A DNA stretch of 13,506 nt from an uncultured Eubacteriales bacterium (GCA_964631135.1 CAZVVZ010000022.1:1-13506); one strand, 5' to 3'. Positions 1 to 13,320 are shown, numbered from the stretch's first letter. Notes: generated from the letters alone by a model not told the origin. Numbers and translations are program-made.

Positions 1-70
1 AAAGTCTTTCGTCGCAAATCCTGAGTTCCGATAAAACATATATCTTATTTCATGTGCTCTGACCAGCGAT
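1..70 (+). mobile_element. Hairpin repeat element, family 1, copy A (3' half only, cut by the window edge)
   Basis: nt 1-43 are identical to nt 1607-1649 of copy B, covering AAGTCTTTC, GTC, GCAAAT, CCTGA and GTTCC. The arm then diverges and ends in CTGACCAGCGAT, resembling the B terminus CTGACTAGTAAC. Strand is the polarity of the asymmetric core. Confidence 0.8.
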
Positions 71-155
71 ATATACTCTGGCTAGCAACTAACTATTTGG
101 GCTACCAGTAAATAGTAACATTCCACACTTTTAGAGTAAATCTTTCTACTTTTAA

Positions 156-1434: not shown

Positions 1435-1526
1435 ATTTTGTTAATGCCCGTAAGAGCTTTAAAATTCTTACTCCACATTAACATAATATTATTATTGCAT
1501 TCTTTTTGTTACACCATAAAGCATCC

Positions 1527-1676
1527 GTTACTAGTCAGATTATATGAAATGAAATATATGTTTTAAAAGGAACGAATATTTGCCGAAAGACTTCCCGTAT
1601 TTTTTTAAAGTCTTTCGTCGCAAATCCTGAGTTCCGATAAAACATATATTTCATTTCATATAGTCTGACTAGTAAC
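1527..1676 (+). mobile_element. Hairpin repeat element, family 1, copy B (complete, MITE-like, 150 bp)
   Basis: The long imperfect inverted repeat GTTACTAGTCAGATTATATGAAATGAAATATATGTTTTA...GGAAC pairs with GTTCC...TAAAACATATATTTCATTTCATATAGTCTGACTAGTAAC. The core is GAAT 1574-1577, ATTTGC 1578-1583, GTC 1617-1619, GCAAAT 1620-1625 and CCTGA 1626-1630. It is flanked by the exact direct repeat AAGCATCC at 1519-1526 and 1677-1684. Confidence 0.85.
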
Positions 1677-1710
1677 AAGCATCCGTCTAATTTGATATAT
1701 ATATTTTTTT

Positions 1711-2727
1711 CTACTTCCTACTTGATAATCTTAAATCTCTTCCAAAAAATCTGCAAACTTCAAAGTTCCCTAAAATTCTTGACACAATCCGCTGATCATA
1801 ATAATTAACTAACTCTTTTAAGTCTTTATTAGTAGAAATAACCGTTTTAGTATGTTTTTTCGCCGAATTTAGTAATCTCGTGTTAAGAATATTAAAAAGC
1901 TCTGAACGTCTCGCCTCTGTCATGTTTTCAGTCCCTAAATCATCTATTATAAGTAACTCAACATTAAACAGCTCTTCATACTGTGATGCATCAAACTCTT
2001 CATTGTCGCCTTTCCTATAGTCCATAACTAGATCCATAAGTCGCCCTGAAGTCTGATACAAAACCGTCTTTCCTTTATCTAAAATAGCTTTAGCAATACA
2101 ATTACTTAAAAACGTTTTTCCCAAACCTGTGCCACCTGTAAACATCAAATTTTTCGTGTCTTTATCGTCAAAATTATCAACAAACTTCTTAGCCATTTCT
2201 TTAATAACAAGTATATTATCTCGTGGTGATTTTTTGCTGTTATATGCCATTTCATCAACCTTATCAGAAAATATAGTTTCATCAAAAGTATCAAAATTCT
2301 CTTTATCTATATTATAAATTTGCGACTGATTATAAGTATAATCAATAAGCTTCTGCCTAAAGCAAGAGCAGTTTTTAGCGCCGGTTATACTACCTATTAT
2401 ACCGGTATCCTCACAAATCTTACACTTAAAATTAGGGGTTAAAAACTCTTCTGTGACTCCTAATTTTTCCAGCAATTCTCTTTTCTCATTTTTTAATTCA
2501 TCAATCTGTGAATTTAAATCATTTACCGCATTTTCACGTTTAGTGTCATCATCTATAAAAATTATAGATTTACTTATATCCATGCCTATTTTCTTTATTT
2601 TCTCATCAATATCCAGTATTTTCGGTTCTTTTTTATAAATTTCTTTTTTCTTTTTCTCCACCTCAGCTAAAGCAAAGTTTCTATCATTTTCATATTCTTG
2701 CTGAATTTTTCTGTAAATTCCCTGCAT
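1711..2727 (-). CDS. Replicative helicase loader, DnaI/DnaC (IstB-like AAA+) family
   Basis: Walker A MFTGGTGLGKTF and Walker B LLIIDDLGTE are present. An N-terminal Cys cluster (CKICEDTG...CSC) resembles the DnaI zinc-binding domain. The RBS GAGGCGGTGA lies upstream. It sits 16 nt downstream of the DnaD-domain gene, as in the Firmicutes dnaB-dnaI arrangement. Confidence 0.85.
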   Translation of the reverse strand: MQGIYRKIQQEYENDRNFALAEVEKKKKEIYKKEPKILDIDEKIKKIGMDISKSIIFIDDDTKRENAVNDLNSQIDELKNEKRELLEKLGVTEEFLTPNFKCKICEDTGIIGSITGAKNCSCFRQKLIDYTYNQSQIYNIDKENFDTFDETIFSDKVDEMAYNSKKSPRDNILVIKEMAKKFVDNFDDKDTKNLMFTGGTGLGKTFLSNCIAKAILDKGKTVLYQTSGRLMDLVMDYRKGDNEEFDASQYEELFNVELLIIDDLGTENMTEARRSELFNILNTRLLNSAKKHTKTVISTNKDLKELVNYYDQRIVSRILGNFEVCRFFGRDLRLSSRK

Positions 2728-2743
2728 ACAATCACCGCCTCAT

Positions 2744-3706
2744 TTAGTTTGCATAAAATCTATCCAAATCATTAAATTCTTTTTGCTCAGGATTAACATA
2801 TGCACTGCTTGTGCCTTTGTTAGTTTTTATAAAATCATTTTTAGCCTTTACCTGCTCAATAAACTCATTTACCTGTTCTTTATTCTTAAGTCCTTTTTCA
2901 GCCCAAGAACAAATAATTTTATTTATATACTCAAAACTTGGATTAGTCTTAGAAGTAGTCTTTTTAAGTGCAATCTCTATAACGTCTAAATCATACCCGA
3001 ATTCTATACACCATTTATCTATATAGGCTTCCTCATATTCAGTAAGTTTTCTCGTAATTCCCAACTTTTTACTAATTGATTTTTTTATTTTATTGCATTT
3101 TTCATATTTTTGATAATAAATATCTAAATCATTCATATTTTTTATCTTGCTAAGCCCCCATGCCTCAGCAACAGTAAATAAATAGTTTTTATGTAAAGCT
3201 CTTTTATCATAGCAATAATTAAATAACGAATAAACAACTTCTTCTTCAAAATTATATTTATCAAAAATAGTTGCAATGTCGTTATACCAAGCCGGGCTCA
3301 TAATCCCCTGGAAAAATGTATTATTTATTGCATTTATAACAGATGCTCTCTTCGTATTCCTGTTGATTTTCTCAACAGCATCCTCAGGTGAAGTAGAAAG
3401 CTTAGGAGTATATAGCCTATTTACCTCTTTTTCTTTTAAATCACACAAAATAATACCTTTTTCAGTACTAATAACTAGACCTACTTTATTAAAATACTCT
3501 ATTGCAGCCTTCACTTTTTCTAACTGCAAACCCGTTTTTTTAGATAAATCAAGTAAAGATATATCTTTATTATGTTTTGATAAAAATAAGCAATATAAAT
3601 AAACCTTGACAAAATCTCCGTCCGCCTCAGTCAAATATTCATTTATAAAAATATCCGAAACTGCTGTATCGCCTAAAAGTAGTGACGAATTGCTCTCTAT
3701 CTTCAT
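2744..3706 (-). CDS. DnaD-domain replication initiation / primosome protein (Firmicutes DnaB/DnaD-like)
   Basis: It has an N-terminal winged-helix-like region and two DnaD-type C-terminal repeats (WGLSKIKNMNDLD..., IICSWAEKGLKNKEQV). It is paired with the helicase loader. AGGAG abuts the first ATG (3715) with zero spacing and lies 9 nt from the ATG at 3706, so 3706 (MKIESNSS) is the preferred start. Confidence 0.75.
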   Translation of the reverse strand: MKIESNSSLLLGDTAVSDIFINEYLTEADGDFVKVYLYCLFLSKHNKDISLLDLSKKTGLQLEKVKAAIEYFNKVGLVISTEKGIILCDLKEKEVNRLYTPKLSTSPEDAVEKINRNTKRASVINAINNTFFQGIMSPAWYNDIATIFDKYNFEEEVVYSLFNYCYDKRALHKNYLFTVAEAWGLSKIKNMNDLDIYYQKYEKCNKIKKSISKKLGITRKLTEYEEAYIDKWCIEFGYDLDVIEIALKKTTSKTNPSFEYINKIICSWAEKGLKNKEQVNEFIEQVKAKNDFIKTNKGTSSAYVNPEQKEFNDLDRFYAN

Positions 3707-3740
3707 GTGTAACATCTCCTATATGTTTTAATCCATTCAC

Positions 3741-3770
3741 ATTCTAACATAAAAGACTACATATATGCAA
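3741..3770 (-). promoter_or_regulatory. Candidate sigma-A promoter for the dnaD-like/helicase-loader pair
   Basis: On the minus strand the promoter reads TTGCAT (3770-3765), an 18-nt spacer ending in TGT, then TAGAAT (3746-3741), i.e. an extended -10. It lies in the 72-nt tex/dnaD-like gap. Confidence 0.45.
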
Positions 3771-3787
3771 GATTGCTGAAAAAGCAT

Positions 3788-5941
3788 TTACACATTTTTC
3801 ATACTAAGCCCCACTTTGCCTTTTTCTAAGTCAATTTTTATAACTTTAACATCAACAATATCTCCAACAGAAACAACATCCATAGGATTTTTAACATAAT
3901 TATTGCTAAGCTCTGAAATATGTACTAATCCGTCATTCTTTATACCTATATCCACAAAAGCTCCAAAGTCAATTACATTTCTTACAGTACCTTTTAATAC
4001 CATTCCCTCACGTAAGTCTTCTAACTTTAAAACATCACTCCTTAAAATAGGTTTTGGCATATCTTCTCTCGGATCACGTCCCGGCTTTTTAAGCTCATTT
4101 AATATATCTGTTATCGTTGGTATTCCGACATTTAACTCTTTGGAAACAGCATTTACATCAAGTGCATTTATTTTCCTTATCATTTCAGCTTTATCCACAT
4201 TTTCAAAATTCTTAACGTCATACCCCATTTTATTTAAAATCTTTTCAGTAACTTCATAAGACTCCGGATGAACAGATGTGTTGTCTAACGGGTTGTCTCC
4301 CTTAGGAATCCTTAAGAATCCCGAGCATTGTGTAAAAGCGGCAGGCCCTAATTTACTTACTTTAAGCAGTTCTTTACGATTTTTGAACTTACCGTTTTCT
4401 TCTCTATACTTTACAATATTAGAAGCGACCGTCTTACTTAAGCCCGAAACATAATTAAGTAGTGATGGAGTTGCAGTGTTTAAATTAACTCCCACCTTAT
4501 TAACTGCATCTTCTACGACCCCGGTTAATGCTTCATCTAACCTCTTTTGGTTAACATCATGCTGATACTGTCCAACTCCAATACTCTTAGGATCGATCTT
4601 TACAAGTTCAGCAAGCGGATCCTGAAGCCTCCTTGCAATAGAGATAGCACCACGAAGAGAAACATTTATATCCGGATACTCTTCTGTGGCAAGTTTAGAA
4701 GCTGAATAAACAGAAGCTCCAGCCTCACTCACAATAGTATAATAAACTTTTTCCGGAATCTCCTTTAACATATCTGCAACAAACTGTTCAGACTCACGGG
4801 AAGCAGTTCCGTTGCCTATTGCTATCATATCTATATTGTGTTTCTTTATTAAAGATTTTAGTTCTCTTTTAGCACCCTCAACATCATTTTGCGGAGCTGT
4901 AGGATAAACTGTGGTAGTAGCTAATAATTTACCAGTTTCATCAATAACCGCAATTTTGCATCCGGTTCTATAAGCTGGATCAAACCCCATTACCGTCATG
5001 TCTTTTAAAGGAGCCTGCAGTAGTAAATTCTTAATATTAACACCAAAAACCTTAATAGCTTTATCATCAGCAACAGCTGTTACATCGTTTCTAATTTCAT
5101 TTTCAATAGAAGGAGCAATAAGTCTCTTATATGCATCAGCTATACAAAGCTTTAACTCCTCTTTAAAAATACTATCTCCCAGTATTGCATCTTTCTCAAT
5201 ATATCCTAAAATTCCATCAGATTCGATCTCTAACTTTGTCTTTAAAACTCCCTCTTTTTCGCCACGATTTATGGCTAAAACTCTGTGACTAGGGATTTTA
5301 GAAATAGGCTCTGCGAAATCGTAATACATATCATATACTGTTTTTTCTTCCGGATTAACTGCCTTAGACGTAAGAACTCCATTTTCAAAAGTTATTTTCC
5401 TAATCTCCTTACGGTAATCCGCATTATCCGAAATTTCTTCCGCAATAATATCCAGTGCCCCATTTATTGCATCTTCTACATTTTTTACTCCTTTTTCTTC
5501 ATTTATGTATTCGCCTGCAATAGTAAACTTATCTCCGGATTTTAGCTCCTGGCTCTTTATAATAATTGCCAACGGTTCCAGTCCCTTTTCCTTAGCAATA
5601 GTTGCCCTTGTTCTCTTTTTCTGCTTATATGGTCTATACAGGTCCTCCAGTTCTGTCATAGTCTCAGCTTTTTCAATCTGAGACTTTAGTTCAGCCGTTA
5701 ATTTCCCTTGCTCATCTATTAAACGAATTATCTCCTCTTTTCTTTCCTCACGCTTCCTAAGATATAGAAGCCTTTCATAAAAATCTCTTAAGACCTCATC
5801 ACTGAGTTCTCCTGTCATTTCCTTCCTATATCTGGCAATAAACGGTATAGTATTGCCGCTGTCGATTAAATCAATAGTATTTTTTACTTGAAACTCCTTC
5901 AAGTTAAACTCATTTTTTAATTGTTCTTGAATAAAATCCAT
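3788..5941 (-). CDS. tex: Tex-like transcription accessory protein (YqgF/RuvC-like, HhH and C-terminal S1 domains)
   Basis: The N-terminal GNTIPFIARYRKEMTGELSD signature, the central GFDPAYRTGCKIAVIDETG (YqgF-like) and the C-terminal S1 domain (GTVRNVIDFGAFVDIG...GLVHISELS) are all present. The track start at 5947 is a TTG. The ATG at 5941 lies 8 nt after GGAG, so it is the preferred start. Confidence 0.93.
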   Translation of the reverse strand: MDFIQEQLKNEFNLKEFQVKNTIDLIDSGNTIPFIARYRKEMTGELSDEVLRDFYERLLYLRKREERKEEIIRLIDEQGKLTAELKSQIEKAETMTELEDLYRPYKQKKRTRATIAKEKGLEPLAIIIKSQELKSGDKFTIAGEYINEEKGVKNVEDAINGALDIIAEEISDNADYRKEIRKITFENGVLTSKAVNPEEKTVYDMYYDFAEPISKIPSHRVLAINRGEKEGVLKTKLEIESDGILGYIEKDAILGDSIFKEELKLCIADAYKRLIAPSIENEIRNDVTAVADDKAIKVFGVNIKNLLLQAPLKDMTVMGFDPAYRTGCKIAVIDETGKLLATTTVYPTAPQNDVEGAKRELKSLIKKHNIDMIAIGNGTASRESEQFVADMLKEIPEKVYYTIVSEAGASVYSASKLATEEYPDINVSLRGAISIARRLQDPLAELVKIDPKSIGVGQYQHDVNQKRLDEALTGVVEDAVNKVGVNLNTATPSLLNYVSGLSKTVASNIVKYREENGKFKNRKELLKVSKLGPAAFTQCSGFLRIPKGDNPLDNTSVHPESYEVTEKILNKMGYDVKNFENVDKAEMIRKINALDVNAVSKELNVGIPTITDILNELKKPGRDPREDMPKPILRSDVLKLEDLREGMVLKGTVRNVIDFGAFVDIGIKNDGLVHISELSNNYVKNPMDVVSVGDIVDVKVIKIDLEKGKVGLSMKNV

Positions 5942-5957
5942 AATCAATTCTCCTTTT

Positions 5958-7904
5958 TTATTTTACTTCCATTCTCGGCACATCCTTAAACATTCGCGGT
6001 GGATTGATATAAGGCTTTTTCTCAATTGCCCTTCTCGTCTTGTTGCGAATATATGTTTCCAGTTTATCCATAAAAACTTTCGCTTCTATTTCTTTATTTG
6101 CAACCATAGTAAGCCCTTTTTCCCAACTTGCGGTAAGCTCGGGATTTAGCATATCCGGCATAGCATCTTTTACTGTTTCATATATTAACTCACCTTTAAA
6201 ACTTGGTGTTATTACCTGGGTTTTAGAATTGCAAATAATGTATGAATTCCTTTGAAGCTTCTTTATTATTTCCGCTCTTGTCGCACTCGTTCCGATACCC
6301 GCACCTTTAATATGTGCCCTTAATTCCTCATCCTCAATAAGTTTACCGGCATTTTCCATTGCTAAAATCATTGTGCCTGTGGTATAGCGGCTTGGAGGGC
6401 TTGTTTCTCCCTCTTTTACTTCAATATTATTTATCTTTAACTGCTGACCTTTTTTTAATCCGCTTAATGCACTTTCATCGCCAGTAGCATCTTTCCCACT
6501 TTTTAGCACTTCTAAATACCCAATGTCCTTACATGTTTTTGCACTGGCAAAAAAATATTCGTCACCGATTTTTACAGTAAGTGAAATTCTGTTAAAAACA
6601 GCCGGCGGATAAAAAATCGCCAAAAATCTAAGCGAAATCACATTATATATCGCCTTTTCAAGCTCTTTTAGCGAATTATAGTTTTCATATCCCTGACCGG
6701 TTGGAATAATAGCATAATGGTCTGTGATTTTCGAATCATCAACATACTTTGATTTCACCAAATCAATATTATACTTTCTCTCAGCAATATTCATCGCAAA
6801 TTTTTTTACATTCTCGTCTAAACATTTTGTCGCTATCCCGTTTAAATTCTTCTTTATCTCCTTAGCAATAGCCGTAGAAAGTACTCTTGCATCAGTTCTT
6901 GGATATGTAACAAGTTTCTTTTCATATAATGTCTGAACAACTGATAAAGTTTCATCAGGTGCAATTTTGAACCTTTTTGAACATTCATTTTGAAGCTCTG
7001 CTAAATTGAAAAGCAAAGGTGCATTTTCTTTTTGTTGCTTCTTTTTTATTTCTTCAACAACTGCAAACTCATTTTTGCTTAAAGCATTCGCAAGATTCTG
7101 AGCATCATCCTTTTTCTTAAAACCAGTTTCATTATATAAAAGCGGTGAATTGTAAAACTTCGTATTTTCTATAGCTTTCCATTCTCCCGAACAATTTCCC
7201 TCTAAATTGCAAACCAGCCTATAAAAGTTTGTCTTAACAAAATTTCTTATTTCTCGTTCCCTGTCTACTACCATTCCTAAAACACATGTCATTACACGAC
7301 CTATTGCAATAACAACTCGCTCCTCTTTGCTTACAACACTTACTGCCCTTGAATATAGTAAACTAAGAAGTCTTGAAAAATTTATGCCAATCAAATAGTC
7401 CTCTTTAGCTCTTAAATATGCTGAATCAGCCAAAGCATCATATTCAGATAAATCTTTTGCTTCACGAATTCCTCTTAAAATTTCTTCCTCTGTCTGAGAA
7501 TCTATCCATACCCTTTTTTTTACTTTACCGGTGACTTTAGCCATAGAATCAACCAGCCTATAAATATACTCTCCTTCACGTCCTGAGTCAGTACAAACAT
7601 ATATAGTTTCAACATCAGCCCTAGTAAGTAATTCCTTTACAATATTAAATTGCTTTTCTACCGATGAAATCACTTCGTATTTATAGTCTGCCGGTAAAAA
7701 AGGAAGTGTAGCAAGTGACCACCTTTTTAATTTCTCATCATAAACTTCCGGATAACTCATAGTAACCAGATGCCCAACACACCATGTAATTACGTAGTTC
7801 TCATTTTCAATATATCCGTCATGCGAAGAAGAGTTTACCTTTAATATTTTGGCAAACTCTTTTGCAACACTTGGTTTTTCTGCTATAAATAAACTCTTTC
7901 CCAT
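5958..7904 (-). CDS. topB: DNA topoisomerase III (type IA)
   Basis: The Toprim N-terminus is LFIAEKPSVAKEF with the acidic cluster CTDSGREGEYI. The active-site tyrosine context is LVTYPRTDARVL. There is no C-terminal zinc-ribbon tail. The stop lies 16 nt before the tex ATG, so the two genes are probably cotranscribed. Confidence 0.9.
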   Translation of the reverse strand: MGKSLFIAEKPSVAKEFAKILKVNSSSHDGYIENENYVITWCVGHLVTMSYPEVYDEKLKRWSLATLPFLPADYKYEVISSVEKQFNIVKELLTRADVETIYVCTDSGREGEYIYRLVDSMAKVTGKVKKRVWIDSQTEEEILRGIREAKDLSEYDALADSAYLRAKEDYLIGINFSRLLSLLYSRAVSVVSKEERVVIAIGRVMTCVLGMVVDREREIRNFVKTNFYRLVCNLEGNCSGEWKAIENTKFYNSPLLYNETGFKKKDDAQNLANALSKNEFAVVEEIKKKQQKENAPLLFNLAELQNECSKRFKIAPDETLSVVQTLYEKKLVTYPRTDARVLSTAIAKEIKKNLNGIATKCLDENVKKFAMNIAERKYNIDLVKSKYVDDSKITDHYAIIPTGQGYENYNSLKELEKAIYNVISLRFLAIFYPPAVFNRISLTVKIGDEYFFASAKTCKDIGYLEVLKSGKDATGDESALSGLKKGQQLKINNIEVKEGETSPPSRYTTGTMILAMENAGKLIEDEELRAHIKGAGIGTSATRAEIIKKLQRNSYIICNSKTQVITPSFKGELIYETVKDAMPDMLNPELTASWEKGLTMVANKEIEAKVFMDKLETYIRNKTRRAIEKKPYINPPRMFKDVPRMEVK

Positions 7905-8026: not shown

Positions 8027-8170
8027 GTTACTGTTCAGACTACTATGCGAAAATAATATATATGTTTTAAAAGGAACGAATATTTGCAGAAAGACTTCCC
8101 GCATTTTTTAAGTCTTTCGTCGCAAATCCTGAGTTCCGGTAAAACGTATATATTATTTTCGCATAGTAAC
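8027..8170 (+). mobile_element. Hairpin repeat element, family 1, copy C (right arm shortened)
   Basis: nt 8030-8137 equal nt 13021-13129 of copy D except for one T in the loop T-run. The core is GAAT 8078-8081, ATTTGC 8082-8087, GTC 8119-8121, GCAAAT 8122-8127 and CCTGA 8128-8132. The right arm lacks 12 bp (GTCTGAACAGTA) relative to D. The flanks CTCTAGCG and CTCAAACG match at 6 of 8 positions. Confidence 0.85.
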
Positions 8171-8200
8171 CTCAAACGTGTTATTATTCAGGCTGATTGG

Positions 8201-8236
8201 TAAAAAACAACTCTTTTGAAATTTGCTTCAAAAGAG
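8201..8236 (-). terminator. Rho-independent terminator, presumably the original NAD operon terminator
   Basis: A perfect 10-bp stem pairs CTCTTTTGAA (8211-8220) with TTCAAAAGAG (8227-8236) across a 6-nt loop. On the minus strand it is followed by TTGTTTTTTA (8210-8201). The stem is AT-rich, so strength is moderate. Confidence 0.55.
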
Positions 8237-8247
8237 CTATTTTAATG

Positions 8248-8434
8248 GAGGCTGCTGAAAAAGTCTTCGAAATAAAAAAATAGCACAGATGCCATATAGC
8301 TTAAAAGATGCGAATATTCACAGGAAAACATCCTATGATGTAGGATAAGAGGTTTCCGTCGTGAATCCTGAGCAACGTTAAACTATATGACATCTGTGCT
8401 ATTTTTTTATTTCGAAGACTTTTTCAGCAGCCTC
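8248..8434 (+). mobile_element. Hairpin repeat element, family 2, copy E (complete, 187 bp)
   Basis: A 43-bp perfect terminal inverted repeat runs GAGGCTGCTGAAAAAGTCTTCGAAATAAAAAAATAGCACAGATG ... CATCTGTGCTATTTTTTTATTTCGAAGACTTTTTCAGCAGCCTC. The core has the family 1 layout: GAAT 8312-8315, ATTCAC 8316-8321, GTC 8358-8360, GTGAAT 8361-8366 and CCTGA 8367-8371. It is flanked by the exact direct repeat ATTTTAATG at 8239-8247 and 8435-8443. Confidence 0.85.
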
Positions 8435-8493
8435 ATTTTAATGTTTCCTATTTAATTAAACCTAGCCAATAACTCTAGGATAAAAAAGCTTCG

Positions 8494-9228
8494 TCAAAGC
8501 TGAGGAATAAAGGTCGGCATCAATTGTAACTTAAATAAATTCCTATTATGCAATTCGTCAATCCTTTCTTTGATGCTTCCATCTTCTATTTCACCGGTAC
8601 GAATATATCTGTCTAAGACTGCATATGGAAATCCCAAATTATCCTCGTCTGTTTTCCCACATAAACCATCCTCTGGAACTTTATTAACTAATTTTGCAGG
8701 TAGATTTAACACTCTACCTATTTCTTTGATTTCAGTTACCGTAAGATTAGATAAAGGTGAAAAATCACCAACAGAGTCACCATATCTTGTTGAATATCCT
8801 ACCCAATCTTCAGATAAATTACAAGTATTTGCAACTCGTCCATTTAAGCTCTGCGAAACTGCATAAAGTGTAGACATTCTAATACGTGCGGGCAAATTTT
8901 CAACAGTTTGCTTAGTAATATTTATCTCAGCTTTTATCTTATCTAAAATACCGTCTATGCTATCTCTTATATTTACTACATAACTTTTTATTTCCAAATG
9001 ATTAACTAGCATATACGAATCACTTATATCCGCCTGTTCGCCATTTGGCATTAGTACACCAATAACTCTTTCTTTTCCCAATGCCTCTACGCATAGAGCC
9101 GCAACAATTGAACTATCTTTCCCACCAGAAATACCCACAATGGCATTGCAACCTTTCCCGTTTTTATCAAAGAAGCCCCTTATCCATTCTACACATTCAT
9201 TTTTTACTTTCATAGCATCAAACAACAT
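8494..9228 (-). CDS. nadE: NH3-dependent NAD+ synthetase
   Basis: The PP-loop motif GISGGKDSS is present, and the ~244 aa size is typical of single-domain NadE. The start ATG overlaps the nadV stop (TAATG at 9230-9226). Confidence 0.9.
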   Translation of the reverse strand: MLFDAMKVKNECVEWIRGFFDKNGKGCNAIVGISGGKDSSIVAALCVEALGKERVIGVLMPNGEQADISDSYMLVNHLEIKSYVVNIRDSIDGILDKIKAEINITKQTVENLPARIRMSTLYAVSQSLNGRVANTCNLSEDWVGYSTRYGDSVGDFSPLSNLTVTEIKEIGRVLNLPAKLVNKVPEDGLCGKTDEDNLGFPYAVLDRYIRTGEIEDGSIKERIDELHNRNLFKLQLMPTFIPQL

Positions 9229-10703
9229 TAAAATCTACCTCCGTGTAAAATATTTCTTATTTCGGACAAAGTCTGTTCTTTTATCATCTTGCCATCTTTA
9301 AAAACTGTAACTAATTCATTTTTTGCATTAGACGTAACTTCATTCCAATTAAATCCGTCTTTGTATATATAATTACCGCTCTCGTCTTTCGTAACTATGC
9401 AACAACCTTTTTGCGATTTCTTAAACCCGCCATCCTTTGGATTCTTAAATATAGGATAAGGAACATTATCAATCTCACAATAAGTCGCCTTAATACACGA
9501 ACTAAAAGTGTCTCTTGTAAAAGGCTTTAATATTCCGTTTTCTTCAATGCATTGCATTGAAAATGAACCAACTCCCAAAGCTACATTTGAGCAGGCAAAA
9601 CCATTATCCATAAGTATTTTATAAATATGTTCACATCTTTCAATAGTTATTGAATCACCATAAATAGCTTTTACATGTGGATCTAAAACTTTATATCCTT
9701 TACTATTAGTAGTTCCACCAAATTCGTCCCATAGTTTAAAAACTGTTTTAGTAACTACCTCGACACAATCACCCGAATCTCCACGCATTAGCATACAACC
9801 ATTGTGATTTAGTATTTCAGGTTTTAATTGAGGCAAAATATTGTCTATAACATTCCAATAATCATATGAATCAAGCACAGCAGAAAAACTTGTATTGGGA
9901 TATATTTCTGTTAATAACCTTCTTAGGAGAGTAATTTCATCTCCGTCAATCGCATAGTTACTACACATTACAGAGTGCTCCGTACTTGGACTTCCAAATG
10001 CAACTGCTTCCTTAGTACAATCACAATTATACATTTTTTCAAGATATGGAACGGTTGGAACCGTAGCAGTATTTAAAAATGATAAACACCACCCTGCGCC
10101 GGCTTTAATTGCAGACTGAGTACATTCCTCACCCCTAAAATCAAATGCGCCAAGAGCTTTTGACTTTGGAATATTATCATCGCAAGTAAGCTCGTAGTAT
10201 TTATCTACTATTTGCCTATATGTATATCCTACAGTTGCTGCAATCATAGGATGCCAACTTTCAGCCGAAATAAAACTTTCTAGCGATTGCGGAAGCCAAG
10301 CGAATTCAGGATGCGTATTTGTAATTCCAAACATTGGAACATGCATCGGGACTTTAGCCCCCTCTGGTAAAGCAACAATTTCAATAGGCAAATACCCCAA
10401 TTTATGAAGTTTTTCAATTTTTTCTATTTTATAGGCATCCTTCCCTAAAGTTGCATCCATAATTCTTCTATATTCACCTATTACTTCGTCAAATGGTTTA
10501 TTGAAAAATTCTTCATTAAAATAATCAATCAAATAGCTTTTTATAAATCCTTGAAGCCCAAACATAACAACCTTATCCCACATATCAACTCTGCTTAGTC
10601 TTGGAGTAAAATACGATACAGATTTTGTTATTTTTTCAGGTAACATTTCTGCATGTACAGCCTTATAAAAGTCTATAAGTAACATAGGATTAATTTTATT
10701 CAT
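9228..10703 (-). CDS. nadV: Nicotinamide phosphoribosyltransferase family protein (NAMPT/NadV-like)
   Basis: The N-terminal NPMLLIDFYKAVH matches the NAMPT (L)xTDSYKxxH signature. The ~490 aa size fits, and the gene sits in a NAD gene context. The track start at 10709 is a TTG inside the upstream gene. The ATG at 10703 follows AGAGGTG by 7 nt and overlaps the upstream stop (ATGAATAA). Confidence 0.88.
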   Translation of the reverse strand: MNKINPMLLIDFYKAVHAEMLPEKITKSVSYFTPRLSRVDMWDKVVMFGLQGFIKSYLIDYFNEEFFNKPFDEVIGEYRRIMDATLGKDAYKIEKIEKLHKLGYLPIEIVALPEGAKVPMHVPMFGITNTHPEFAWLPQSLESFISAESWHPMIAATVGYTYRQIVDKYYELTCDDNIPKSKALGAFDFRGEECTQSAIKAGAGWCLSFLNTATVPTVPYLEKMYNCDCTKEAVAFGSPSTEHSVMCSNYAIDGDEITLLRRLLTEIYPNTSFSAVLDSYDYWNVIDNILPQLKPEILNHNGCMLMRGDSGDCVEVVTKTVFKLWDEFGGTTNSKGYKVLDPHVKAIYGDSITIERCEHIYKILMDNGFACSNVALGVGSFSMQCIEENGILKPFTRDTFSSCIKATYCEIDNVPYPIFKNPKDGGFKKSQKGCCIVTKDESGNYIYKDGFNWNEVTSNAKNELVTVFKDGKMIKEQTLSEIRNILHGGRF

Positions 10704-11505
10704 AATCAAACACCTCTATTTTCTCATTATTTCCAGTAAATATTGTTTTTACAGTAAATACTTTCTCTATTTCCTTACCTTTAATTACTTCACCATCAAA
10801 AATTGTATTTTCACAATGTGTAACATACAAATAAATTTTATTTGCACCAAGCTCTTTTAATCTCTTAGCACTCAAATAAAAAGTACCACCACGGCTCGAA
10901 ATATCATCTATTATCAAAACATTTCCACCCTTAACCAATTCTGCTTGTCCCAATATATCAAGTCCACAAATCTCACCATTTTCCCAATTCCTTTTCTTCA
11001 TTCCAAAAGCATAAGGCTTATCTATCATTTTTGAATAGCGTTTCATTGCTCCTTCATCAGGATAAAACATAATTAAATTCTCGGACTCGTTTTTCACTTT
11101 TGAAATAGCCATTTCGATATATTTCTTTGGTGTTTCAACAATTATATTGTTAAATAACGCTTCACTTACATTAGAATGTGGGTCTAATACAGACACCGAT
11201 GTAAAATTTAAAAAATTTATAATTTCTGCAAAATACTTCAAAGTAAATACATCTTCATCATTTTTCACTCTGTCTTGCCTTGCATTTGGAATATATGGCA
11301 TTCTTAAATGAATATTTTTTATTCCATGGGAATTTAAGTGCTTTGTTAAATAGATAAGTGTAACCAATTCTTCATTGTTTTCAAAAAGCCATGTAATAGT
11401 TGCACTCCTAGCCTCAGAAAAATCTTTCGCAATGTTTTCTTTTAGCAAAATAGTTCCATCCGGAAATTTTTCATGGGTTATTATTTTATTATCTAATTTT
11501 ATCAT
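10696..11505 (-). CDS. Ribose-phosphate pyrophosphokinase (Prs) family protein, short divergent NadV-associated type
   Basis: Prs-like motifs are PYIPNARQDR (canonical PY.GYARQDR), LDPHS (canonical DLHA) and the PRPP/ribose-phosphate loop VLIIDDISSRGGT. At 269 aa it is shorter than the roughly 315 aa I recall for housekeeping Prs. The RBS GGAGA lies inside the pncA 3' end, 2 nt past the pncA stop. Confidence 0.8.
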   Translation of the reverse strand: MIKLDNKIITHEKFPDGTILLKENIAKDFSEARSATITWLFENNEELVTLIYLTKHLNSHGIKNIHLRMPYIPNARQDRVKNDEDVFTLKYFAEIINFLNFTSVSVLDPHSNVSEALFNNIIVETPKKYIEMAISKVKNESENLIMFYPDEGAMKRYSKMIDKPYAFGMKKRNWENGEICGLDILGQAELVKGGNVLIIDDISSRGGTFYLSAKRLKELGANKIYLYVTHCENTIFDGEVIKGKEIEKVFTVKTIFTGNNEKIEVFDYE

Positions 11506-11507
11506 AA

Positions 11508-12038
11508 CTATTCTCCTATCACATCAATTTGGCATGACTTCATAGTTTCTAATGCTGATTTGTGTTTATCAGGTGTTACCCCAGCGCAACAAGTTGAGTC
11601 AACCAGTATAGTAGCTTCAGGAAAAGTAGCCTTTAATATTAAAGCATTAGACACCACACAAATATCTGTACAAAGTCCTACCATCTCAATTTCCATATTT
11701 TCTTCCCCAACAACGTTTTTTATTAAGTTAGGTAAATCTATAGAACCAAAAGTAATCTTCTCAACAATTTTGTGTTTCTTATTCATAAGGGCTTTATTTA
11801 CCTTATCATTCAAATTCCATCCATTAGTGCCTTTTATACAATGTGGTACCGGTAATTTTCTTCCCTCTGATGTTTCCATATAATTGTTATAATGCGTATC
11901 TAATGTAACAAAAATTTCACCTTCAAACTCAGTAATTTTCTTCACAACATTATCTACAATTAACTCAGCTTCCTTTGTACCTAGTGCACCATCAATAAAA
12001 TCATTCTGCATGTCCACTACAATTAGAATCTTTTTCAT
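11508..12038 (-). CDS. pncA: Nicotinamidase (isochorismatase-family cysteine hydrolase)
   Basis: It carries LIVVDMQNDF (catalytic Asp), a lysine-containing middle region, and GLCTDICV with the catalytic Cys. The size is 176 aa. A strong RBS, GGAGAGAGG, is present. Confidence 0.88.
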   Translation of the reverse strand: MKKILIVVDMQNDFIDGALGTKEAELIVDNVVKKITEFEGEIFVTLDTHYNNYMETSEGRKLPVPHCIKGTNGWNLNDKVNKALMNKKHKIVEKITFGSIDLPNLIKNVVGEENMEIEMVGLCTDICVVSNALILKATFPEATILVDSTCCAGVTPDKHKSALETMKSCQIDVIGE

Positions 12039-12096
12039 AAGCCTCTCTCCTTTTTATTTTAATAAATTACTAACTAATACAATTGCTGTTCATGCC

Positions 12097-12927
12097 TTAA
12101 CACTTTCTTCTAAAAAGCTTGGCTGGTCGATGACCCGCTCCGCTTTTATATTCATCTGTTTCAGTTACATATTCTGATATTTTCCTCCTAAAGTTACCTA
12201 CATACAATGATATATTTAATATTGCTTCTTGAACTTTTTGTAATTCATATAATGTAAATTTCTCTGGCAGGAAATCAAAAATTATATCGTAATTTTCTGC
12301 TTTATTCTTTAATAACATCAACGCAGTTGAAATTATTTGTGCATGATCAAAAGCCAGCTCACCCGGGTCTATTATTTTAAATTTGCTAATATTAAATTTT
12401 TTATTTTCTAATTTAAGAGAACTTTTAATTAAAGTTTCTTCGTTAGTAAGTTTTAACTCATATATATTATCTTCCTTTTGTTCTAAAGATACTTCAAACC
12501 ATCTAACATCTACCGAATCACCTCCACACTTTTCTTTTTCCAAATCATCCCCTACGATAGATAAATAAGCATTTGATATTATTCTTCCTCTTGGATCTCT
12601 ATCAATAGCACTAAATGTATCTACTAACATAAGTGAATTAGGAATTATATTAGTTTCCTCTTTTATTTCCCTATAAGCACACTCCTCAAGAGTCTCTTTT
12701 TGTCTCAAAAACCCTCCCGGCAATGCCCACTTATTTAAAAATGGGTACTCGCCTCTCCGAATAAGAAGTATCGATAAATGGCTCTTATTATTCTGACGAT
12801 AATTATATGAGTCCTCATCTTTCATTGTAAAAACAGCAATATCTGTCGCAACAGATGGTCTATCATAATTTTCTATTTTATAATTATCCAGAAAATTTTT
12901 TTCTTCATCTTTTTTTACTTTTGTCAT
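12097..12927 (-). CDS. nrtR: Nudix-related transcriptional regulator of NAD metabolism (N-terminal Nudix domain, C-terminal winged-helix domain)
   Basis: The Nudix box is GGFLRQKETLEECAYREIKEETNI. An additional ~100 aa C-terminal region (ELQKVQEAILNISLYVGNFRRKI...) is consistent with the NrtR wHTH. It is the first gene of a NAD salvage operon. The RBS GGAGA lies 6 nt before the ATG. Confidence 0.8.
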   Translation of the reverse strand: MTKVKKDEEKNFLDNYKIENYDRPSVATDIAVFTMKDEDSYNYRQNNKSHLSILLIRRGEYPFLNKWALPGGFLRQKETLEECAYREIKEETNIIPNSLMLVDTFSAIDRDPRGRIISNAYLSIVGDDLEKEKCGGDSVDVRWFEVSLEQKEDNIYELKLTNEETLIKSSLKLENKKFNISKFKIIDPGELAFDHAQIISTALMLLKNKAENYDIIFDFLPEKFTLYELQKVQEAILNISLYVGNFRRKISEYVTETDEYKSGAGHRPAKLFRRKC

Positions 12928-12999: not shown

Positions 13000-13016
13000 G
13001 TTATGTTTTATGCTAG

Positions 13017-13175
13017 GTTTACTGTTCAGACTACTATGCGAAAATAATATATATGTTTTAAAAGGAACGAATATTTGCAGAAAGACTTCCCGCATTTTTT
13101 TAAGTCTTTCGTCGCAAATCCTGAGTTCCTTTTAAAACATATATATTATTTTCGCATAGTAGTCTGAACAGTAGC
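13017..13175 (+). mobile_element. Hairpin repeat element, family 1, copy D (complete, 159 bp)
   Basis: A 49-bp perfect stem pairs 13020-13068 with 13125-13173. The core is GAAT 13069-13072, ATTTGC 13073-13078, A 13079, GAAAGACTT 13080-13088, AAGTCTTTC 13102-13110, GTC 13111-13113, GCAAAT 13114-13119 and CCTGA 13120-13124. It is flanked by the exact direct repeat TATGCTAG at 13009-13016 and 13176-13183. Confidence 0.88.
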
Positions 13176-13259
13176 TATGCTAGTTGCTATTCAAACTTGA
13201 TTTAATAAAACTTAGTATTTAAGCCACTCACAACAATAATTTCTTTTCGGAAAAATATT

Positions 13260-13300
13260 AAAAAAAATATCTCGGTTGAAATTTAAGCCAACCGAGATAT
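13260..13300 (-). terminator. Rho-independent terminator of the upstream SPFH-like gene (possibly bidirectional)
   Basis: A perfect 12-bp stem pairs ATATCTCGGTTG (13267-13278) with CAACCGAGATAT (13289-13300) across a 10-nt loop. An A-run lies on the + side at 13260-13266, giving a U-tract on the minus strand. TTTTT follows on the + strand. Confidence 0.8.
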
Positions 13301-13320
13301 TTTTAGTGAGTTTTAATTCA

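Follow-up and report, generated by a model that had tools for sequence, protein, structure and literature searches.

Hairpin elements bounded by 8-9 bp direct repeats in uncultured Clostridia: a probable family of non-autonomous foldback-type MITEs with a conserved centre

What are the long non-coding hairpins that occupy the spacers between housekeeping genes of an uncultured bacterium, and what do the exact direct repeats at their ends tell us about how they arrived there? The question is raised by a low-GC (about 33%) chromosomal stretch of 13,506 nt, hereafter the window, in which the minus strand carries all real genes (aspartokinase-like, DnaI-like, DnaB_2, Tex, topoisomerase, NadE, NAPRTase, PRPP-type protein, isochorismatase and NrtR) and whose spacers hold five related hairpin elements, A, B, C, E and D, in identical orientation (Table 1). 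The elements are 150-190 bp in size, intergenic and non-coding. A first-pass annotation had taken the repeats flanking B, D and E for target-site duplications and the elements for non-autonomous ones. The reading favoured here, to which we assign a probability of roughly three in four, is that the hairpins represent an undescribed family of non-autonomous foldback-type MITEs in uncultured Clostridia, inserted in trans and later remodelled.

The repeats bounding B, D and E (8, 8 and 9 bp, respectively) can be read directly from the sequence where that annotation had placed them, on the ends of the palindromes, and a script that determines palindrome ends by alignment and then searches for direct repeats recovered all three at offsets of 0-3 nt; the B repeat is readable as 8 to 10 nt (AAGCATCC[GT]), because the element itself starts with GT. 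In same-species contigs fetched via identical proteins, two more such copies came to light, A (complete in contig L001) and F (L013). Altogether, five of the six complete copies of the window's species carry exact repeats, four of them of 8 bp (B-type copies) and one of 9 bp (E), and the repeat sequences are unrelated between copies. For any 8-mer in this window, the rate of an exact second occurrence beginning 100-250 nt beyond its end is 7.2e-5 per position pair, corresponding to a chance of at most about 4e-3 per element (with about 50 boundary choices each) and of about 1e-11 for five of six copies; five exact repeats set against such a rate therefore exclude chance. Their fixed length, their differing sequences and their position at the palindrome ends, together with the two further cases A and F, support the interpretation as target-site duplications. 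Duplications of 8-9 bp are produced by several DDE families, including IS6, IS256, ISL3, IS1595 and IS1.

The term 'non-autonomous' is apt as well, because the elements have neither coding capacity (their longest ORFs, of no more than 47 aa, are spurious) nor a transposase nearby: a Pfam search found no transposase gene in the window, none lies beside 9 other copies, and the DNA around the examined copies holds no autonomous IS with matching ends. A 338-aa protein that matches IstB_IS21 and Bac_DnaA was considered as an IS21 helper and rejected; given the adjoining DnaB_2 protein, the two (window 1711-3715, minus strand) are read as a dnaB-dnaI helicase-loader pair. The IstB_IS21 match of this DnaI-like protein could mislead automated transposase searches.

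Table 1. Hairpin elements, their duplications and associated sequences (window positions unless a contig is named)
Feature	Position	Strand	Remarks
Copy A (B-type), right part only	1-89	+	cut by the start of the window; ends ...CTCTGGCTAGCAAC
Copy A, complete in L001	L001 12639-12826		188 nt; tips GTTACTAGTCAGAG / GTTGCTAGCCAGAG
Copy A, right 8-bp duplication	90-97	.	TAACTATT
Copy A, duplication in L001	L001 12631-12638 and 12827-12834		AATAGTTA, reverse complement of TAACTATT
Copy B, left target-site duplication	1519-1526	.	AAGCATCC
Copy B	1527-1676	+	150 nt; tips GTTACTAGTCAGA / TCTGACTAGTAAC
Copy B, centre	1573-1631	+	CGAATATT-TGC-[P3 hairpin]-GTC-GCA-AATCCTGAG
Copy B, right target-site duplication	1677-1684	.	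AAGCATCC
Copy C (B-type)	8027-~8168	+	centre 8077-8133; left tip GTTACTGTTCAGAC intact
Copy E, left target-site duplication	8239-8247	.	ATTTTAATG
Copy E (E-type)	8248-8434	+	187 nt; tips GAGGCTGCTGAAAAAG / CTTTTTCAGCAGCCTC
Copy E, centre	8311-8372	+	with extra P4 hairpin
Copy E, right target-site duplication	8435-8443	.	ATTTTAATG
Copy D, left target-site duplication	13009-13016	.	TATGCTAG
Copy D (B-type)	13017-13175	+	159 nt; 49-nt arms 100% complementary; centre 13068-13125
Copy D, right target-site duplication	13176-13183	.	TATGCTAG
Solo tip-like sequence	13183-13196	+	GTTGCTATTCAAAC; 11/14 matches to tip GTTACTGTTCAGAC; directly right of D
Copy F (B-type, new)	L013 5193-5343		TTTATATG at both sides

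As to their genomic setting, copy E sits between the nadE stop codon (8494) and the nadE terminator hairpin (8207-8238). Terminator-like hairpins of the A-tract/hairpin/T-tract kind occupy window positions 8202-8250 and 13262-13310, 3' of nadE and 3' of the gene upstream of nrtR, respectively, and are 71% alike. In the interval 8494-12927, an NrtR-type regulator gene leads a series of genes for the salvage and synthesis of NAD (isochorismatase/PncA-like, PRPP-type, NAPRTase and NadE); copy D is located a short way upstream of the nrtR promoter predicted at 12987-12958 (TTGACA-18-TATTAT). Copy B contains an outward-facing promoter-like sequence, TTTAAA-17-TATAAT (window 1539-1567, minus strand), directed toward the aspartokinase-like gene and absent from the other copies; a promoter and terminator scan of the copies revealed no enrichment of promoter-like sites.

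How are the elements built, and which part of them is conserved? The B-type copies (A, B, C, D and F) have common tips of 13-14 nt, GTTACTNNTCAGA (GTTACT(A/G)(G/T)TCAGA), at both ends of A, B, D and F and at the left end only of C, the right tip of which is lost or degenerate and which has no flanking repeat. Just right of the truncated C, the sequence TTCAGGCTGATTGG (window 8185-8200) resembles the E-type tip GAGGCTGCTGAA (8/12) and may be what is left of a further insertion by which C lost its right tip. In B-type copies the tip is followed by a variable stretch, a conserved inner stem (...ATATATGTTTTAAAAGGAA) and an asymmetric centre of 57-59 nt; copy E possesses different tips (GAGGCTGCTGAAAAAG at both ends) and outer arms unrelated to those of the B type, together with a homologous inner stem and centre. 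Each element folds into one long hairpin, that of copy B (outer arms of 39 nt, 97% complementary) at -77 kcal/mol (z = -18.6) and that of copy E (arms of 64 nt, 92% complementary) at -102 kcal/mol (z = -16.5). The tip GTTACTNNTCAGA also bounds, at both ends, a 60-nt centre-less remnant in another organism (the MAG described below, L010 132-191); the tip is therefore conserved between organisms, which is what one would expect if a transposase bound it. All the same, the conserved part of the element is its centre, not its termini. The consensus of this part, CGAATATT-YRC-[P3 hairpin]-GTC-GYR-AATCCTGAG, spans about 60 nt and is nearly invariant; between the two types P2 switches from TTGC/GCAA to TCAC/GTGA and P3 is replaced completely. 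Over 16 distinct sequences 97.8% of cells are paired, with 16 of 35 pairs changed on both sides, versus 32-45% paired in controls in which the partners were slid by 1-3 columns. P1, P2 and P3 each covary, and the loop 5'-GAAU/5'-CCUGA and most of the bulge (GUC/GUU) are invariant. The centre probably acts as a folded single strand, either RNA or DNA, that binds a putative factor.

To what extent is such an element distributed beyond this species? An exact-pattern scan for the centre returned five matches among species-representative genomes, all of them in one MAG ('uncultured Eubacteriales', L006-L010), and only one in JGI metagenomes, a chance match inside a gene. In viral contigs, the strict pattern gave 0 matches and a relaxed pattern 25, all of which failed the covariance model; a plasmid collection searched by blastn with D and E yielded nothing meaningful. 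Synteny combined with a covariance model built from 12 copies, with relatives chosen via the hisS of the MAG (HisRS 87-96% identical), revealed six further copies in L020, L051 and L053/L054, whose centres carry the bulge GTT, a first base T or the loop CCCTGA. The strict pattern missed the variants GTTG, TGAATATT and AATCCCTGAG, and the apparent rarity of the family is partly an artefact because this pattern was too narrow. The names of the NadE relatives include Clostridiales, Oscillospiraceae and Clostridia bacterium, which places the family in a clade of uncultured Clostridia. A literature search found no description specific to this family.

The copies of related lineages bring in an alternative that is tentative, yet has to be weighed with care. 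Most of these copies are without a recognisable tip, and their typical location is a spacer between convergent genes, which in relatives lacking the element contains a small terminator. Several species (HisRS 87-89% identical to that of the MAG) have copies at the same two intergenic sites, and the copy between hisS and the CBM53 gene in L020, which was found by synteny and not by pattern, keeps both conserved blocks. Perhaps, then, the centre and the inner stem constitute a structured RNA or single-stranded DNA module kept by the host, maybe a protein-binding 3'-end or terminator element, for which the tips and duplications are only the vehicle; such a reading is compatible with that of a MITE, the difference lying in the part under selection. 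The occupied sites just mentioned, the location of copies just after stop codons or across convergent spacers that have ordinary terminators in relatives, and the invariance of loop and bulge while P1, P2 and P3 covary would all be in keeping with it. Nevertheless, Rfam 15, searched with the whole window at E <= 1, contains no matching family, only sub-threshold plant miRNA-precursor models (31-32 bits versus gathering values of 62-73) that match because of the long hairpin, and promoter-like sites are, as noted above, not enriched. A first impression of minus-strand G-U mismatches had to be dropped after a systematic count of arm mismatches, in which G-U versus A-C stood at 8 versus 7 with no strand preference. 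Nor does the internal loop correspond, from a reading of the sequence, to any canonical k-turn, loop E or ribozyme core: by eye, none of the hammerhead, hairpin ribozyme, k-turn, loop E, tRNA T-arm and group II domain V fits the centre, and the loop 5'-GAAU/5'-CCUGA, although tandem G-A pairs beside P1 are conceivable in it, is not a canonical k-turn. It was further observed that variants of the centre are species-specific and common to the copies within one genome (the bulge GTTG in both L020 copies, the loop AATCCCTGAG in both L053 copies), which points either to a recent spread inside each genome or to conversion among its copies, and which fits these two processes as well as it fits selection.

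The arms behave in the opposite way to the centre. Identity between copies amounts to 0.86-0.98 in the centre (within type), 0.73-1.0 in the inner arms and 0.26-0.80 in the outer arms, whereas within each intact copy 13-15 of 15 arm positions per bin are complementary; L007 and L010, for instance, differ at 1 of 64 centre positions and are only 57% identical in their outer arms. As far as these alignments go, the arms must either be homogenised against each other or be selected for perfect pairing, because mutation plus selection on the centre alone cannot give such a pattern. In some copies the palindrome reaches into genes. In one L053 copy, whose 98-nt arms (5919-6016 / 6090-6187) are 98% complementary, the left arm begins 34 nt inside the metallophosphoesterase gene, and the inverted copy of this 3' end directly adjoins the stop codon of Coat_F, the convergent gene. 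The encoded C-terminus reads ...PEICVITLNSK* in L053, ...PEICVIELKSLSQN in L022 and ...PELCIITLKNSKKNS in L020, and the L053 gene end is taken to be native because L022, which has no element, ends ...PEICVIELKSLSQN*. A palindrome of 207 nt in L010 covers the final six codons of hisS on one side and the final three of the convergent CBM53 gene on the other, and both gene ends look native in comparison with relatives. Another L053 copy, a 320-nt palindrome with 122-nt arms, fills the BofA-GH94 spacer, which measures 19 nt in L051; a source for these 122-nt arms was found neither in the local flanks nor in other copies. The arms of the two L020 copies appear, by reading, to be related (identity 0.49 in the outer and 0.73 in the inner arms). 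Because of these related L020 arms and of the L053 BofA-GH94 arms without a flank match, a host origin of the outer arms was rejected as a general rule. From the sequence comparisons we infer that the palindromes may be corrected and extended after insertion by intrastrand template switching, which would erase tips and duplications.

A further and less likely possibility gives growth of the palindrome a larger part. A module of about 110 nt, comprising the inner stem and the centre, would then be a selected structured element that nucleates growing palindromes and persists at the same sites across species: one flank would be copied inverted onto the other side, even over coding ends, until the convergent spacer is filled. 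The tips of MITEs are usually their conserved part, and the observation that B-type and E-type tips differ while the centre is the same, the reverse of that pattern, speaks against a MITE. So does a point raised in the first-pass annotation, by which the reading would fail if copies generally lacked flanking repeats: although five of six complete copies in the window's species carry them, in related lineages none of the eight copies with both ends on the contig (L006, L007, L008, L010, two each in L020 and L053) has direct repeats; we attribute the missing duplications to later remodelling of the palindromes.

Might some enzyme act on the folded centre instead of on the terminal repeats? The spacer between hisS and the CBM53 gene holds a hairpin element in L010, L020 and L051, and the flanks of the L051 copy read as inverted, not direct, repeats. 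A further 27-nt palindrome, GAGGCCATAAAAGACTCATTTAAATAG, which resembles E-type arms, symmetrically encloses the B-type copy at L051 8560-8759. This copy has tips of its own (GTTGCTGCTCAGAC / GTTACTGTTCAGAC), and its tip-adjacent flanks are inverted rather than direct repeats. In L022, a relative without the element, the spacer contains a different, GC-rich and perfect palindrome of 62 nt (4318-4380; TGACCAAGAGGGACGGGGTATTT...), and palindromic repeats in general seem to land in this spacer. In L053, it contains a gene for a 368-aa Rpn/YhgA-like protein (10099-11205; Pfam Transposase_31, E = 4e-31). The metallophosphoesterase-Coat_F spacer of L051 contains both a short-armed copy (4584-4696) and, about 240 nt from it, a split IS91-type transposase (Zn_Tnp_IS91 and Y2_Tnp; 3237-4348). 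It is with these two genes in mind, and given that the centre and not the tips is conserved across types and that the relatives' copies have no duplications and mostly no recognisable tips, that one could picture a hairpin or single-strand nuclease or recombinase, be it of the HUH or of the PD-(D/E)XK Rpn/YhgA-like kind, moving the element via its folded centre without reading terminal repeats, the direct repeats being a by-product of repair. Such a scenario is very unlikely: the known HUH systems (IS200/IS605, IS91 and REP/RAYT) leave no target duplication, the duplications seen here are fixed in length and lie exactly at common tips of 13-14 nt, and the Rpn/YhgA-like gene and the IS91-like gene were observed only a single time each, in places where other species have elements anyway. 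We treat both of them as coincidental occupants of hot spots.

If the elements did transpose as MITEs, do alleles exist from which they are missing? At D, one strain contig (L013) has no copy: its flanks are about 99% identical, the gap measures 166 nt, and one 8-mer, CTAGCATA, is left. Comparison with such an allele had been proposed in the first-pass annotation, which anticipated a single copy of the flanking 8-9-mer; this single copy is indeed present, although the junction, TATGCTAG-GTTACTGTTCAAAC-TTGATT, retains a 14-nt tip-like sequence and does not represent a clean empty site. Judged by sequence, the allele would most simply be a deletion between D's left tip and the tip-like GTTGCTATTCAAAC rather than a virgin target, because a deletion needs one change and an untouched target three changes within 14 nt. 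Clean empty sites were not encountered elsewhere: the contigs on the lysC side and the dnaI side all carry B, relatives reached via NadE belong either to the same species or are at most 82% identical (one match at 98% was non-syntenic), and the sequence for the topoisomerase search was not on record. Contigs of the same species differ in other respects. L001 and L002, with flanks 99.4% identical and the same duplication, show eight differences in the outer 26 nt of A's right arm (window 56-81), a clustering that suggests conversion from another copy and not point mutation. In L013 and L014, E copies are joined to other distal flanks, and these represent either further E loci with inter-copy recombination or assembly chimeras through the repeat, both contigs changing locus inside a repeat. 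Such switches, and the metagenomic origin of the assemblies, could invite the suspicion that the flanking repeats are mere coincidence or assembly artefacts around ordinary palindromes; this is effectively refuted by five exact repeats against a background of 7e-5, by the large palindromes being identical in L053 and L054, which come from two separate JGI samples, and by the recurrence of the same junctions in independent ENA and Logan assemblies of several samples, which are therefore not artefacts of assembly.

How, then, would a foldback-type MITE of this kind come about? A transposase encoded elsewhere would recognise the short terminal inverted repeats, GTTACTNNTCAGA in A, B, C, D and F and GAGGCTGCTG in E, cut the target with a stagger of 8 or 9 bp and join the element to it, whereupon gap repair would generate the 8-9 bp direct repeats. 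These insertion steps are deduced from the scars they would leave, and the transposase and its family are both putative. After insertion, intrastrand template switching (quasipalindrome correction) would keep the two arms complementary while allowing them to drift from those of other copies, and it could also extend the palindrome outward across the flanks, in which case the duplication would be erased. The centre, that is P1-P3, the invariant loop and the GUC/GUU bulge, would be maintained either by selection or by conversion between copies. Two known mutational processes, quasipalindrome correction and the arm-to-arm gene conversion of large palindromes, would explain both the complementary yet diverging arms and the inverted gene end in L053; to our knowledge, neither has been described as the regular fate of a bacterial MITE family.

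With what known systems can these elements be compared? Bacterial MITEs include Correia/NEMIS in Neisseria, RUP in Streptococcus pneumoniae and ERIC/IRU in enterobacteria. Like them, the hairpins are elements of 100-200 bp, non-coding, intergenic and multi-copy, that form one long hairpin, have terminal inverted repeats and duplications, and are presumably mobilised in trans by an IS transposase. Correia and RUP elements, however, duplicate TA, in contrast to the 8-9 bp found here, and unlike in bacterial MITEs at large, the most conserved part is an asymmetric, covarying centre of about 60 nt, shared across subfamilies with different tips, whereas the arms are copy-specific. Long inverted arms of variable length, a short centre and 8-9 bp duplications are reminiscent of the eukaryotic foldback (FB) transposons and the Mutator/IS256 lineage, as is the repeated tip-like motif in each arm of copy A. 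Even so, the host is a bacterium, the arms are without tandem subrepeats and no IS256-type transposase was seen, so that the likeness is one of working and not of membership.

Two features, the 8-bp duplication of the B-type copies and the short terminal repeats of about 14 bp, are common to the IS6 family (IS26, IS257 and IS1216). Compared with the terminal repeats of IS26 (GGCACTGTTGCAAA) and IS1216 (GGTTCTGTTGCAAAGTTTTAAATCTACTATCAAA) (PMC5328509; PMC2920175), the tip GTTACTGTTCAGAC has ACTGTT in register with the former (8/14, not significant after comparison with many families) and shares CTACTAT with the latter. With the ends GGCACTGTTGCAAA / GGTTCTGTTGCAAAG as the reference for descent from IS6, the agreement is this same 8 of 14 positions, and the B and A copies, unlike the matching tip, read ACTAGT there. 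No IS6 transposase was found. Moreover, IS6 elements move by cointegrate formation, a process not obviously suited to an element of 150 bp. The IS6-like tip is no more than a weak lead to the mobilising family.

Other intergenic palindromes of bacteria appear more distant. REP/BIME-RAYT and IS200/IS605-derived elements are also found between genes, often 3' of them. They are short imperfect hairpins handled by HUH enzymes, with a fixed tetra- or pentanucleotide beside the insertion and no target duplication, whereas here exact 8-9 bp duplications flank hairpins of 150-320 nt, the flanks have no common motif, and the window contains neither a Y1_Tnp nor a RAYT gene. Integron attC sites resemble the elements in that structure is conserved above sequence and that a long imperfect hairpin has conserved unpaired bases. 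Those sites have RYYYAAC/GTTRRRY ends, stand in cassette arrays next to intI and show no target duplications. The present ends, by contrast, are GTTACT...AGTAAC, the opposite arrangement, they are accompanied by duplications, and the neighbours are housekeeping genes, with no sign of a cassette array or intI. The exclusion of IS200/IS605, REP/RAYT and attC because of the duplications, as argued in the first-pass annotation, is therefore sound.

What would such a family mean for its hosts? A MITE with target duplications belongs to an ordinary category, and its main weight is for annotation: the repeats break metagenome assemblies of this species, several contigs ending or switching locus inside them, and they alter the 3' ends of genes. 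Of wider interest are the inverted pattern of conservation, with a nearly invariant covarying centre versus free arms, and the sequence-based indications that the palindromes may grow by taking up copies of host flanks. Confirmation in closed genomes would make the family a tractable natural example of how arms are homogenised and palindromes extended in bacteria, and would also furnish a candidate new structured motif with a putative binding partner. Should the growing-palindrome reading prove true, it would represent a mobile element whose functional part is its centre and not its ends, and a natural palindrome-expansion system in bacteria.
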